Notes under the pieces: generated by a model
Database searches by the model: none
What the model was told of the DNA's origin: nothing
The model's input: the letters and a program-made list of their open reading frames with translations, nothing else
Shown: one piece after another, positions 22,880 to 34,731 of the stretch
Layout of the letters: every line of letters starts with the position of its first letter
Position numbering within the stretch: position 1 is the first letter of the stretch
Made by a program: the position numbers and the translations under genes
Origin: Escherichia coli
GTDB lineage: Bacteria; Pseudomonadota; Gammaproteobacteria; Enterobacterales; Enterobacteriaceae
Length of the DNA stretch: 64,000 nucleotides
Strand: one strand, 5' to 3'
NCBI RefSeq assembly: GCF_003334335.1
Contig: NZ_QOWQ01000015.1

Positions 22880-23572
22880 TCAGAAGAAATACTTCGTCCC
22901 GATACGGATCTGGTTTTGCTCGCGGTGGTACGGTTCGACGTTGCGGTCTAACCAGCGCAATTCGAAATAAGGGAGCCAGTGTTCATTAATACGGTAACGG
23001 AAGGTGTTAGTGATTTCCCAATGATGATCTTTCCCGTTGCTACTATTAAAGTCATTCACTCGCATGAAGTAATGTGGCTCAAATGTATAGGAAAATTTAT
23101 CGGTGATTTTAAAATTCCAGTAGGTGCCAATTTCATAGGTGTCATTATTATCCAGTTCCCCGCTCAAATCTGTTGAACTATAGTTATTATGGTTATAGCG
23201 ATTTCGTACTGTCAGATTAAACCATGGTACAAATTTATAGTTGACGTCCAGATACACTGCACCACCCGAACCGATACTCTTATCATTAATTAAGCCACCG
23301 GGCTGGATGGTTAATTTATCGGTTGGTTTAAATAACGGATACCAGCCTTCAATTTCGTTATATCCATGTTTTAGTTCATCTTCTCGCTGAAAGTTGTAGG
23401 TATTGGTTAACATAATACCCGCGCCCATATCGAAGTTATAACCCACACGTAGCATAACCTCGCCCTGATCGGAGGCAAGATTATATGCCTCCCTGTTTTC
23501 GACGTATGCGCCAGCAAATACCGAGGCAGAGGTCAGAGAAGATAATAAAATTATTGCATTAATCTTTTTCAT
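22880..23572 (-). CDS. ompL: Outer membrane porin OmpL
   Basis: Start placed at ATG 23572 (MKKINAIILLSSLTSASVFA signal peptide, 230 aa); C-terminal aromatic residues (...GTKYFF) typical of beta-barrel OMPs. Confidence 0.9.
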   Translation of the reverse strand: MKKINAIILLSSLTSASVFAGAYVENREAYNLASDQGEVMLRVGYNFDMGAGIMLTNTYNFQREDELKHGYNEIEGWYPLFKPTDKLTIQPGGLINDKSIGSGGAVYLDVNYKFVPWFNLTVRNRYNHNNYSSTDLSGELDNNDTYEIGTYWNFKITDKFSYTFEPHYFMRVNDFNSSNGKDHHWEITNTFRYRINEHWLPYFELRWLDRNVEPYHREQNQIRIGTKYFF

Positions 23573-23639
23573 AATAAGTCCATTTTTTAAACGTAGGGAG
23601 GCCGCCACCCACCAGGATGGAAATAGCGGCTATTGACAT

Positions 23640-25043
23640 TTATAACGTTACGGAAGCCGTTTTTTCTTCTGTCGCCATCTCTTTATTTTTGCGTTGGTTG
23701 ATTTCCTCAATAATCAATGCAAACCGTTTTTCATTGAGTGTGTAAAAGAATCCCATCGTCAATGCAGCAATAATTGCCAGTGCACAAGGCCAGATAAAAA
23801 TGAGCTGACGCAAACCCTGTAATGTCGCATCGCTTTGCGCGATGTTGGGAACATAACCAATTTGCGTCAGCATAATGCCTGGCAAGAAGCCAGCAAGTGC
23901 GGCAGAAATTTTACGAAAGAAGGTATAACCGGTATAAACAGAACCTTCGGCACGAATACCGGTTTTCCATTCACCGTAATCTACGGTATCTGGTACCAGT
24001 GCCCAGTTCAGGCTGTTTACAAAGGCCGTGCCAAAAAAGGCGACACAAGAGAACATGACGAAAGTGAAAGAGTTACTTCCCCAGAAATAATTCAGTATAT
24101 CACCCACCGCCCACAGCACCATGCCAGCCAGATAAACCTGTTTTTTACCAAAACATTTTACAGTTAATGGCACCAGTAATACGCCGATGAGGATGCATCC
24201 CATACTGAAGAATCCCATCCACGACAATAAATTAATATCATTCAGCACATACTGGGTGTAATAGACCTGAATCGCCAGTTTGATATTAAATGCCGCCAGG
24301 GTACACAAGTTAGCAATGCATAAAACCAGCAATGGCGGATTCCGAAATATCGCGCAAAATGATTTGAGAATACTGGCTTTATGTCCGGTTGGCGTTGTGT
24401 CCACATAATGCTCTTTGACGCCTCTGTAGCACAGCATCATAAAAATAAAGCCGCCAATGGAGAACATAAGTGCCGCACAGGCATAACCGACGGTTGAGTC
24501 AGAAAAAAGCGACTGCAACGGAATAAACGCCACGGTACAAATCAATAGCCCTATGGTTGCACCACCCTGGCGGTAAGCCGCGAGCTGCGCGCGCTCATTC
24601 GGGTTTTTGGTAATTGCCGGGATCATCGCACCATACGAGCAGTTCATCAGACTGTATGAAAGTCCAAACATCATAAACAGCGCGGTGGCAATCGTCGTTT
24701 TAACCGGCAAACAAAAGGTGGTGGCGATAAACTGGAGCGTTGCAATTAACGCCGCCGGAACCGCTGCATATAAAATAAAGGGACGAAATTTGCCTTTAGG
24801 CCCAATATTTTTCCGCGAGTCGAGTAAAAATCCGGTGAGCATATCGGTAAACGCGGTAAAAAACTTCGCCACCAGAAAGATAATCCCGCCATAGTAAGCA
24901 GGCATCCCTAATTCATCGGTATAAAATTTGAGGAGATACAGAGTACCGATGCAGAGCATTAAATTCGAACCGACGTCGCCCATACCATAGGCGATTTTTT
25001 CCCGCAGATTCAGTTTTAATGTCAGTGGATTATGGTCAGACAT
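23640..25043 (-). CDS. yihO: GPH-family sulfoquinovose/glycoside:cation symporter YihO
   Basis: Start placed at ATG 25043 (MSDHNPL..., 467 aa) with AAGGAG Shine-Dalgarno; polytopic membrane protein; strong paralogy to adjacent yihP. Confidence 0.9.
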   Translation of the reverse strand: MSDHNPLTLKLNLREKIAYGMGDVGSNLMLCIGTLYLLKFYTDELGMPAYYGGIIFLVAKFFTAFTDMLTGFLLDSRKNIGPKGKFRPFILYAAVPAALIATLQFIATTFCLPVKTTIATALFMMFGLSYSLMNCSYGAMIPAITKNPNERAQLAAYRQGGATIGLLICTVAFIPLQSLFSDSTVGYACAALMFSIGGFIFMMLCYRGVKEHYVDTTPTGHKASILKSFCAIFRNPPLLVLCIANLCTLAAFNIKLAIQVYYTQYVLNDINLLSWMGFFSMGCILIGVLLVPLTVKCFGKKQVYLAGMVLWAVGDILNYFWGSNSFTFVMFSCVAFFGTAFVNSLNWALVPDTVDYGEWKTGIRAEGSVYTGYTFFRKISAALAGFLPGIMLTQIGYVPNIAQSDATLQGLRQLIFIWPCALAIIAALTMGFFYTLNEKRFALIIEEINQRKNKEMATEEKTASVTL

Positions 25044-25085
25044 AATCACTCCTTATAACGCCCCGCAGGGCGTCGTTTATTATTA

Positions 25086-32962: not shown

Positions 32963-33015
32963 AAACAATTGGTGAAATTAAAATGAACGCATCCCAAAAT
33001 GTTTAAGGAATGACC

Positions 33016-33912
33016 ATGATTCGTGTTGCTTGTGTAGGTATAACCGTGATGGATCGCATCTATTACGTGGAAGGGTTACCGACGGAGAGCGGTAAATACG
33101 TGGCGAGAAATTATACGGAAGTTGGTGGCGGGCCAGCGGCGACGGCAGCGGTTGCGGCGGCAAGGCTGGGGGCGCAGGTCGATTTTATTGGTCGCGTAGG
33201 TGATGACGACACGGGCAACAGCCTGCTGGCAGAGCTGGAATCCTGGGGCGTTAACACCCGTTACACCAAACGGTATAACCAGGCGAAATCTTCGCAATCC
33301 GCCATCATGGTGGATACCAAAGGCGAGCGGATAATCATTAACTACCCCAGCCCGGATCTGCTGCCTGACGCAGAGTGGTTGGAGGAAATTGATTTCTCTC
33401 AGTGGGATGTTGTGCTGGCAGATGTACGCTGGCACGACGGCGCTAAAAAAGCCTTCACCCTGGCCCGTCAGGCGGGTGTGATGACCGTTCTGGACGGGGA
33501 CATTACGCCGCAGGATATCAGTGAGCTGGTGGCATTAAGCGATCACGCGGCCTTTTCAGAACCGGGTCTGGCGCGCTTAACGGGCGTGAAAGAGATGGCC
33601 AGTGCGCTAAAACAGGCACAAACGCTCACAAATGGTCATGTCTATGTGACCCAGGGTAGCGCAGGCTGCGACTGGCTGGAAAATGGTGGGCGTCAGCATC
33701 AACCGGCCTTCAAAGTTGATGTGGTAGATACCACAGGTGCGGGTGATGTTTTTCACGGCGCTTTGGCGGTGGCGCTGGCAACAAGTGGGGATTTAGCGGA
33801 GTCAGTCCGCTTCGCCAGCGGTGTAGCGGCGTTAAAATGCACACGTCCCGGTGGACGAGCCGGGATCCCTGACTGTGATCAAACCCGATCTTTTTTGTCA
33901 CTTTTTGTATAA
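33016..33912 (+). CDS. yihV: 6-deoxy-6-sulfofructose kinase YihV (pfkB/ribokinase family)
   Basis: Start placed at ATG 33016 (MIRVACVG..., 298 aa), 6 nt after AAGGA; pfkB motif DTTGAGD; recognised by recall. Confidence 0.9.
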   Translation: MIRVACVGITVMDRIYYVEGLPTESGKYVARNYTEVGGGPAATAAVAAARLGAQVDFIGRVGDDDTGNSLLAELESWGVNTRYTKRYNQAKSSQSAIMVDTKGERIIINYPSPDLLPDAEWLEEIDFSQWDVVLADVRWHDGAKKAFTLARQAGVMTVLDGDITPQDISELVALSDHAAFSEPGLARLTGVKEMASALKQAQTLTNGHVYVTQGSAGCDWLENGGRQHQPAFKVDVVDTTGAGDVFHGALAVALATSGDLAESVRFASGVAALKCTRPGGRAGIPDCDQTRSFLSLFV

Positions 33913-33945
33913 AATGCCAGGGTGATGGTTTTTCGAGGAATTTTC

Positions 33946-34731
33946 ATGAGCCTTACCGAACTAACCGGTAACCCGCGGCACGACCAACTCCTCATGCTGA
34001 TCGCCGAGCGTGGGTATATGAATATTGATGAGCTGGCAAATCTGCTGGATGTCTCCACGCAGACGGTCCGCCGGGATATTCGTAAATTAAGCGAGCAAGG
34101 CCTGATTACGCGCCATCACGGTGGCGCGGGTCGGGCTTCCAGCGTCGTTAATACGGCGTTCGAGCAGCGTGAGGTTTCGCAAACCGAGGAAAAAAAAGCG
34201 ATTGCCGAAGCGGTGGCAGACTATATTCCTGATGGTTCAACAATATTTATCACCATTGGTACGACTGTTGAGCATGTTGCCCGGGCGTTACTTAACCATA
34301 ATCATTTGCGGATAATCACCAACAGCCTGCGTGTGGCGCATATTCTTTACCACAACCCGCGCTTTGAAGTGATGGTGCCCGGCGGTACGTTGCGCTCTCA
34401 TAATAGCGGGATCATTGGCCCTTCAGCGGCGTCCTTTGTGGCTGATTTTCGTGCTGATTATCTGGTAACAAGCGTTGGGGCGATTGAGAGCGATGGCGCG
34501 TTGATGGAGTTTGATGTAAACGAAGCTAACGTGGTGAAAACGATGATGGCGCACGCGAGAAATATTCTGCTGGTCGCCGATCACACTAAGTATCATGCTT
34601 CGGCGGCGGTTGAAATTGGTAACGTGGCACAGGTCACTGCGCTCTTTACCGACGAGCTGCCGCCCGCTGCGCTAAAATCACGCTTACAAGACAGCCAAAT
34701 TGAAATCATTCTTCCCCAGGAAGACGCGTAG
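33946..34731 (+). CDS. yihW: DeoR-family transcriptional repressor of the sulfoquinovose cluster, CsqR (YihW)
   Basis: Start placed at ATG 33946 (MSLTELTGNPRHD..., 261 aa); N-terminal DeoR HTH, C-terminal sugar-binding domain. Confidence 0.9.
   Translation: MSLTELTGNPRHDQLLMLIAERGYMNIDELANLLDVSTQTVRRDIRKLSEQGLITRHHGGAGRASSVVNTAFEQREVSQTEEKKAIAEAVADYIPDGSTIFITIGTTVEHVARALLNHNHLRIITNSLRVAHILYHNPRFEVMVPGGTLRSHNSGIIGPSAASFVADFRADYLVTSVGAIESDGALMEFDVNEANVVKTMMAHARNILLVADHTKYHASAAVEIGNVAQVTALFTDELPPAALKSRLQDSQIEIILPQEDA

Follow-up and report, generated by a model that had tools for sequence, protein, structure and literature searches.

Does the ten-gene yih locus of this Escherichia coli chromosome encode a complete and working pathway for the breakdown of sulfoquinovose (SQ), the head group of the plant sulfolipid SQDG? 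Bacteria of gut and soil that break SQ down supply the sulfur cycle, and cross-feeding organisms thereby produce hydrogen sulfide (PMC6278857). The window, by which we mean the whole 64-kb stretch of DNA that was analysed, derives from an E. coli chromosome. Its gene order is collinear with that of E. coli K-12 MG1655, with 14 substitutions and a single 184-bp indel separating the two over 64 kb.

Layout of the cluster and its identity with K-12

The earlier note placed ten contiguous genes at 22880-34731, and all of them are found there. The ten ORFs occupy 11,852 bp, from the stop codon of ompL (22880, minus strand) to that of csqR (34731, plus strand). Both edges agree with the annotation of K-12 MG1655 and with that of several RefSeq E. 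coli chromosomes in which the region is 100% identical and annotated as ompL, yihO–yihV and csqR. As had been proposed, yihV and csqR lie on the strand opposite to the other eight genes. The flanks are those of K-12, with yihLMN upstream and yihX-yihY-dtd-fabY downstream, and the cassette sits between yihN and yihX. Of the functional modules that the mapped K-12 annotation places in the window it is, at 11.85 kb, indeed the largest, ahead of rha, fdo and frv.

Only three bases of the cluster differ from K-12 MG1655. Two are synonymous, at 25275 (the single difference in yihP) and at 27308 (the single difference in yihQ), and the third, at 32869, lies in the yihU/yihV spacer. The translations of all ten genes are 100% identical to the K-12 proteins b3875–b3884. 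Each gene starts with ATG and none contains an internal stop, which bears out the claim that the ORFs are intact with good starts. A purine-rich Shine-Dalgarno-like stretch lies 5' of most of the genes and is weak for ompL. The longest ORFs of ompL, yihO, yihP and csqR open at upstream GTG codons, and the annotated starts differ from these.

A search of the whole window against Rfam at gathering thresholds found no RNA family inside the cluster, and thus nothing to suggest a riboswitch or an sRNA. In 22700-34900, a consensus scan for promoters and terminators returned 11 promoter-like sites, where chance predicts 13.2 ± 4.1, and 23 terminator-like sites, where it predicts 15.1 ± 4.2. The scan was uninformative and missed the mapped promoters of the yihU/yihV spacer; promoter positions were taken from published mapping (PMC5816610).

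Transport genes and enzymes of the proposed pathway

Inspection of the ten genes indicated a K-12-type sulfo-EMP sulfoquinovose cassette. Taken whole, with the pathway and the CsqR/CRP regulation proposed below, we put the probability of this reading at about 97%. No feature of the sequence speaks against it.

The product of ompL (22880-23572, minus strand; K-12 b3875) belongs to the KdgM/NanC family of outer-membrane porins. It matches the NCBIfam equivalog for porin OmpL with 472 bits (NF007434, cut-off 288) and Pfam KdgM (PF06178, 3.5e-91), with a distant PDB match to NanC. From its sequence, OmpL is proposed as the channel by which the anionic sulfosugar, or glycosides of it, would enter, and SQ or its glycerol glycoside would probably cross the outer membrane through this KdgM-type porin. 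Both yihO (23640-25043, minus strand; b3876) and yihP (25086-26471, minus strand; b3877) encode GPH-family cation symporters (TIGR00792, 529 and 537 bits, respectively). With the porin, these two permeases are the dedicated transport genes of the cluster, and their substrates are predicted. YihO is the putative SQ importer that would carry out the next step, as K-12 deleted for yihO does not grow on SQ; nor do K-12 deletions of yihS, yihV, yihT and yihU (PMC6278857). Export of the final product, 2,3-dihydroxypropane-1-sulfonate (DHPS), would proceed most likely via YihP, a role also worded as "most likely" in the literature (PMC6278857).

The K-12 annotation still labels OmpL, YihO and YihP (the latter a "putative" exporter) as putative, and likewise YihR. 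Homology and induction point to the roles of OmpL, YihP and E. coli YihR, which are putative here too, and our literature search found no direct assay of transport by OmpL, YihO or YihP, or of E. coli YihR. It is conceivable, if rather doubtful, that the membrane trio works otherwise than drawn and that CsqR acts through isoforms: YihP might be a second importer (for example of sulfoquinovosyl glycerol), OmpL a KdgM/NanC-type sulfosugar-selective channel, and the full-length and Met25-start forms of CsqR a two-state switch, all of these taken jointly. Such alternative roles concern K-12 equally, not the window alone.

The gene yihQ (26517-28553, minus strand) encodes a GH31 sulfoquinovosidase, which frees SQ from glycosides such as sulfoquinovosyl glycerol. 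YihQ matches PDB 5AED/5AEG/5OHT (sulfoquinovosidase) over its full length with 1634 bits, and contains the sulfonate pocket R301-W304-Y508 as well as D405 and D472. It would hydrolyse SQ glycosides in the proposed pathway, an activity demonstrated for the identical protein. Its NCBIfam name, "alpha-glucosidase", is an older generic label. The product of yihR (28752-29678, minus strand; b3879) is an aldose-1-epimerase and putative SQ mutarotase that, by homology, might interconvert the SQ anomers; it matches NCBIfam NF011719 with 617 bits and Pfam Aldose_epim at 1.1e-57. The start of yihR is placed at 29678 in the K-12 annotation and at 29654 by PGAP. PDB sequence searches with YihR and CsqR, at thresholds of 1e-10 and 1e-15, gave no match.

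YihS (29792-31033, minus strand; b3880), the sulfoquinovose-sulfofructose isomerase, would then convert SQ to sulfofructose and also to sulforhamnose; its enzymology is published (PMC8006165). It matches PDB 2RGK (E. coli YihS) over its full length with 993 bits, and also 7AG4. The entry 2RGK was deposited as YihS sugar isomerase, and a near-identical chain is named sulfoquinovose isomerase. The sulfonate pocket Arg55-Gln362-Gln379 is present. The best NCBIfam match of YihS, "D-mannose isomerase", is below its cut-off and is again an older generic label. Sulfofructose would be phosphorylated at C1 by YihV (33016-33912, plus strand; b3883), a pfkB-family sulfofructose kinase with a full-length match to PDB 7AG6 (sulfofructose kinase, 666 bits) and the pocket K27-N109-R138; its top NCBIfam match, ribokinase, is sub-threshold. 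The class I sulfofructose-1-phosphate aldolase YihT (31050-31928, minus strand; b3881) would cleave the product to dihydroxyacetone phosphate, which enters glycolysis, and sulfolactaldehyde. YihT matches PDB 7AG1 (sulfofructose-phosphate aldolase) over its full length with 646 bits, and the Schiff-base K193 is present together with R253, A26, S226 and S227. The NADH-dependent 3-sulfolactaldehyde reductase YihU (31952-32848, minus strand; b3882) would finally reduce sulfolactaldehyde to DHPS. It belongs to the NCBIfam equivalog NF012005 (603 bits, cut-off 348) and matches PDB 6SM7 (sulfolactaldehyde reductase) over its full length with 640 bits, with N174, S178 and R123 present. The steps assigned to YihS, YihV, YihT and YihU have each been demonstrated.

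Every published sulfonate-pocket or catalytic residue, as listed in PMC8006165, is present in the window's enzymes. The family named for each ORF in the earlier note agrees with the NCBIfam, Pfam and PDB matches. The profile and structure check that it called for placed every ORF in its named family, five of the enzymes having solved E. coli structures.

CsqR and the control regions

The gene csqR (yihW; 33946-34731, plus strand; b3884) encodes a DeoR-family repressor with profile matches to the DeoR/GlpR family. Met25, from which internal initiation is proposed to give the short isoform CsqR-s (PMC10991401), is present at 34018. The cluster had been described as having a divergent regulator. 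This holds for the yihV-csqR pair, which is divergent from yihU; csqR itself lies 3' of yihV on the plus strand, is not head-to-head with the catabolic genes, and has its own promoter (PMC5816610).

The yihU/yihV spacer (32849-33015, 167 bp) is the divergent control region. It contains the CsqR binding region, a CRP site and promoters that face either way; CRP binding and the starts of transcription have been mapped in it (PMC5816610). In K-12, genomic SELEX and gel shifts show that CsqR binds this spacer (PMC8249747, PMC8006165, PMC12608037), the spacer is the single strong genomic target of CsqR (PMC8249747), and CsqR is released from DNA by SQ and sulforhamnose (PMC8006165). We found a GTCA-type direct repeat, TGTCACTTTTTG, three times in the spacer (at 32871, 32904 and 32952), and by eye the short palindromes TGTCATTTATGACA and GTCAAAAAATTGAC. 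CsqR would be bound cooperatively in these 167 bp when SQ is absent, repressing the divergent transcription units on either side. It would be released by SQ, SQ-glycerol and sulforhamnose, with cAMP-CRP as an added global control.

The spacer, the CsqR binding region by K-12 data, is identical to K-12 except for one base. This is a T to G change relative to K-12 at 32869, 21 nt 5' of the yihU ATG and adjoining the first GTCAC repeat. For the window's version of a 61-mer around this position, 2,405 complete genomes have a match of at least 99% identity, against 1,209 (including MG1655 derivatives) with one of 95-99%. The unusual base thus appears, from these counts, to be that of K-12, the window's form being commoner in E. 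coli, and for this reason a strain-specific regulatory mutation at 32869 was rejected. Our literature search found no experiment on the window's 32869 allele.

The 33-bp yihV/csqR spacer (33913-33945) is identical to K-12 and holds csqR's own promoter and a CRP site that reaches into the end of yihV. Transcription of csqR starts 27-28 nt 5' of its ATG and a class II CRP site is reported (PMC5816610), and the yihV/W region has been used in YihW gel shifts (PMC12608037). The yihQ/yihR spacer (28554-28751, 198 bp) is AT-rich (GC 0.43 in its kilobase) and contains only consensus-level promoter-like matches, on the plus strand; we found no experimental data on it in the literature. The yihR/yihS spacer (29679-29791) contains a reported promoter and a G+C-rich dispersed palindromic repeat at 29727-29765, and RNA polymerase binding to it has been reported (PMC5816610). 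A 92-nt query over the repeat hit 20,405 places in 4,293 E. coli genomes. This dispersed repeat is the source of the median of 4 places per genome that the whole cluster matched as a query, and paralogous copies of the cluster were rejected as the explanation of that figure.

Alternative readings

One group has reported a response of the cassette to lactose as well (PMC5816610), and SQ may therefore not be its sole input. Might the cassette be mainly, or also, a second lactose/galactoside catabolic system, with YihQ as glycosidase, YihS as isomerase, YihV as kinase, YihT as a tagatose-bisphosphate-like aldolase, and YihW and CRP mediating the lactose response? The yihV and yihT promoters are reported to be lactose-activated, and the cassette to resemble a lactose cassette of Bacilli (PMC5816610), and the best NCBIfam matches of YihT are tagatose-1,6-diphosphate aldolase subfamilies. 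However, these YihT matches miss every curated cut-off (137 bits vs 184), each enzyme has a dedicated sulfonate pocket with all its residues present, and the regulator is tied to SQ by genomic SELEX and SQ-dependent release (PMC8249747, PMC8006165). We consider this reading very unlikely. The generic NCBIfam labels (alpha-glucosidase for YihQ, D-mannose isomerase for YihS and, sub-threshold, ribokinase for YihV) would also fit sugar-metabolism paralogues clustered by chance, an alpha-glucosidase, mannose isomerase, ribokinase, tagatose aldolase and hydroxyacid dehydrogenase that have no sulfosugar role. Yet the proteins are those of K-12, with SQ-specific activities and ligand complexes published (PMC8006165); the window's enzymes match the corresponding PDB entries, and the generic matches of YihV and YihS fall below curated cut-offs. 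The published enzymology of identical proteins refutes this idea, whose probability we regard as negligible.

The cluster might also be intact yet silent or non-functional in the source strain, for example if the change at 32869 altered yihU expression or CsqR binding. This one base beside the first GTCAC repeat is the only departure from K-12 in the control region, and SQ fails to induce the short cassette of E. coli Nissle 1917 (PMC12608037). Against this, the window's base is the commoner one, all proteins are identical to K-12, and the published silent case is a structurally different short cassette, not the long one. A silent cluster is therefore highly improbable, even more so than a lactose system.

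We therefore return to the sulfo-EMP cassette of K-12 type. Growth of K-12 on SQ with excretion of DHPS is credited to Denger et al. 2014, as cited in PMC6278857, and the genes of the long cassette show induction on SQ, with a log2 fold change of at least 5 (PMC12608037). With ten proteins identical to K-12 and a control region that differs by one common base, the pathway in the source strain is expected, from its sequence, to work as in K-12. The strain carries the complete long cassette, predicted to be inducible, not the short variant, and should grow on SQ as K-12 does. The cluster is already known, a textbook module, and the window brings nothing new to SQ breakdown; the earlier note rightly called the system established, the K-12 cluster being well characterised and its proteins identical.

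Comparison with known systems

The K-12 MG1655 cluster, the prototype of sulfo-EMP, has the same ten genes as the window in the same order, orientation and spacing. The gene content ompL-yihOPQRSTUVW at a conserved chromosomal site defines the long form of the yih cassette (PMC12608037), which has been characterised in K-12 by knock-outs, enzymology, crystallography, genomic SELEX and RNA-seq. At least 80% of the cluster is carried by 3,884 of the 5,426 complete E. coli genomes (about 72%). The short cassette yihTUVW, whose description rests on PMC12608037, is found in E. coli Nissle 1917 and many pathogenic strains, and shares with the window its location and the homologous aldolase, reductase, kinase and regulator. 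In contrast to the complete long form of the window, it is inverted and without ompL, yihO, yihP, yihQ, yihR and yihS, and SQ does not induce it. With the yihT-csqR segment of the window as a megablast query, about 1,400 of the 5,426 complete genomes gave no match, which is consistent with a diverged short form, or none, in these genomes. A weak match to the spacer 61-mer query (H22) was considered as a short cassette and rejected; it is a long cassette with a diverged spacer.

Salmonella enterica enzymes are the source of the ligand complexes that define the sulfonate pockets (PMC8006165). SeYihS and SeYihT of the Salmonella enterica yih cluster (7AG4, 7AG7, 2AFA, 1TO3) are orthologous, full-length matches to the window's enzymes, and their chains score below the E. 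coli ones (926-930 vs 993 bits for YihS, 563-565 vs 646 for YihT). The other sulfoglycolysis routes (sulfo-ED, sulfo-TAL, sulfo-TK and sulfo-SMO/ASMO) also start from SQ and frequently have a mutarotase and a sulfoquinovosidase of the YihQ type as well, whereas in them a dehydrogenase/dehydratase, transaldolase, transketolase or monooxygenase replaces the kinase and aldolase pair.

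Gene content and identity with K-12

An ORF listing of 20500-37500 contains eight large ORFs in a row on the minus strand (22880-32848), which correspond to ompL, yihO, yihP, yihQ, yihR, yihS, yihT and yihU, followed by two further ORFs on the plus strand (33010-34731), yihV and csqR. Both ends of the cluster claimed in the earlier note coincide exactly with the stop codons of ompL and csqR. The claim of intact ORFs with good starts also holds, as all ten begin with ATG, have no internal stop and encode proteins that match those of K-12 at 100% identity. Where the longest listed ORFs open with GTG, that codon is not the annotated start. 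For yihR, the K-12 annotation places the start at 29678 (308 aa) and PGAP at 29654 (300 aa) on identical DNA, and a better Shine-Dalgarno-like sequence (GGGAGG) precedes the upstream start.

A megablast search against all complete E. coli genomes returned full-length, 100% identical matches to 22880-34731 on several chromosomes. Three base differences in total separate the cluster from that of K-12 MG1655: synonymous changes at 25275 in yihP and 27308 in yihQ, and T (K-12) to G (window) at 32869 in the yihU/yihV spacer. The whole window is collinear with MG1655 from 4,040,724 onward, from which it departs by 14 substitutions and a single length difference, of 184 bp. Since so few differences are found over 64 kb, the source is a very close relative of K-12, other than MG1655 itself. 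The length difference lies in the rhaD-rhaA spacer (53583-53811), an array of ~92-nt REP/BIME-type units with two Rfam naRNA4 matches, in which the window is shorter by two units.

Enzyme families and the proposed pathway

The family assignments of the earlier note are upheld by profile searches and by solved structures. NCBIfam equivalogs are matched by OmpL (472 bits, cut-off 288), YihQ (PRK10426, 1247 bits, under the old name 'alpha-glucosidase'), YihR (aldose-1-epimerase, 617 bits) and YihU (sulfolactaldehyde 3-reductase, 603 bits). YihO (529 bits) and YihP (537 bits) belong to the GPH symporter family and CsqR to the DeoR/GlpR family, while Pfam places OmpL in KdgM and YihR in Aldose_epim. 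YihS, YihT and YihV match only related NCBIfam families, with every score under its cut-off, as expected where a specialized enzyme lacks a dedicated NCBIfam model. Five enzymes align along their whole length with solved E. coli structures, namely YihQ (5AED, sulfoquinovosidase), YihV (7AG6, sulfofructose kinase), YihS (2RGK, whose deposited name is E. coli YihS sugar isomerase, that of the near-identical chain 7AG4 being sulfoquinovose isomerase), YihT (7AG1, sulfofructose-phosphate aldolase) and YihU (6SM7, 3-sulfolactaldehyde reductase). PDB sequence searches detected the acidic-sugar channel NanC as a distant relative of OmpL, and at the thresholds used they found no relatives of YihR or CsqR with a solved structure. 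All the sulfonate-pocket residues listed for the five enzymes (PMC8006165) are found in the window proteins: R301, W304 and Y508 of YihQ, R55, Q362 and Q379 of YihS, K27, N109 and R138 of YihV, K193, R253 and A26 of YihT, and N174, S178 and R123 of YihU.

Published work on K-12, whose proteins are identical, supplies the pathway. Sulfoquinovose (SQ) or SQ-glycerol would enter the cell with a presumed role for OmpL, and SQ would be taken up through YihO, as a yihO deletion mutant is unable to grow on SQ (PMC6278857). YihQ removes the aglycone, and the E. coli YihR presumably equilibrates the anomers. YihS then yields sulfofructose, plus sulforhamnose. Phosphorylation of sulfofructose by YihV gives the substrate that YihT splits into DHAP and sulfolactaldehyde, the latter being reduced by YihU to 2,3-dihydroxypropane-1-sulfonate, which 'most likely' leaves through YihP. 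Growth is supported by the DHAP half of the sugar alone.

The CsqR-bound spacer

The yihU/yihV spacer (167 bp, 32849-33015) is the single strong genomic target of the repressor CsqR (PMC8249747), whose binding there is cooperative and is lost in the presence of SQ, SQ-glycerol or sulforhamnose (PMC8006165; PMC12608037). Within the spacer a TGTCACTTTTTG-like direct repeat occurs three times, at 32871, 32904 and 32952, and two short palindromes containing GTCA can be made out by eye. These repeats and palindromes are plausible candidates for DeoR-type contacts; no published CsqR footprint was found in the literature for comparison with the repeats. Promoters in both directions, a csqR promoter of its own and CRP sites have been mapped experimentally (PMC5816610), and a consensus promoter scan of ours did not recover the published promoters, performing no better than chance. 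CsqR Met25, the proposed start of an SQ-induced short isoform (PMC10991401), is present in the window protein.

Position 32869, in this spacer, precedes the yihU ATG by 21 nt. The window form appears to be the commoner and that of K-12 the rarer, because a 61-nt query centred on the position finds 2,405 genomes with >=99% identity, against 1,209, an MG1655 derivative among them, with 95-99%. We have no grounds to expect an effect of this change.

Surroundings, alternatives and cassette form

Directly upstream of the cluster, yihL, yihM and yihN (19724-22789; lower G+C, ~0.44) encode a GntR regulator, a TIM-barrel sugar-phosphate isomerase/epimerase and an MFS transporter, each of which the K-12 annotation calls putative; we found no stated link of yihLMN to sulfoquinovose. 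Other Rfam elements outside the cluster are Spot 42 (9166-9284), CsrC (10313-10566), ES222 (17495-17602), STnc370 (19492-19560, just upstream of yihL) and a selenocysteine insertion element in fdoG (44459-44517). Within the cluster, the yihR/yihS spacer carries a G+C-rich imperfect palindrome (29727-29765) with a 12-nt tandem (TTGGGGAGAGGG / TTAGGGAGAGGG), to which some strains add another 12-nt unit. The palindrome is a dispersed repeat that seems to resemble the 'box C' family, and a 92-nt query covering it finds 20,405 sites across 4,293 E. coli genomes (a median of 4 in each). Beyond the cluster, the fabY start differs between the K-12 and PGAP annotations on identical DNA (36726 vs 36774; 329 vs 313 aa). 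The ~850 bp between fabY and yiiE (37716-38567) hold no annotated gene in K-12, and G+C is low (0.36) at 38000-38999. As other strains have a pseudogene fragment, or a pseudogene plus transposase, in this interval, a decayed insertion site is suggested.

Enzymology published for the identical proteins refutes the idea that generic paralogues lie together here by chance. That the cluster is silent in this strain is unlikely because its proteins are those of K-12 and its spacer allele is a common one. A lactose role for the yih cassette, proposed by one group, has little support and is at odds with the core enzymes, which are strictly specific for sulfosugars. The reading of the earlier note, an established rather than novel SQ system, is supported: the cluster is already known.

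At least 80% of the cluster is found by megablast in 3,884 of 5,426 complete genomes and yihT-csqR-like DNA in 4,022, the remaining ~1,400 having no megablast match to the yihT-csqR segment. One candidate short cassette among the matches proved on inspection to be of the long form, its spacer having diverged. These counts agree qualitatively with the division of E. coli cassettes into long (ompL-yihOPQRSTUVW) and short (yihTUVW) forms (PMC12608037). Every defining feature of sulfo-EMP sulfoglycolysis that can be tested from sequence is found in the window cluster, which is the prototype itself, more than a relative, and has the long, SQ-inducible form.
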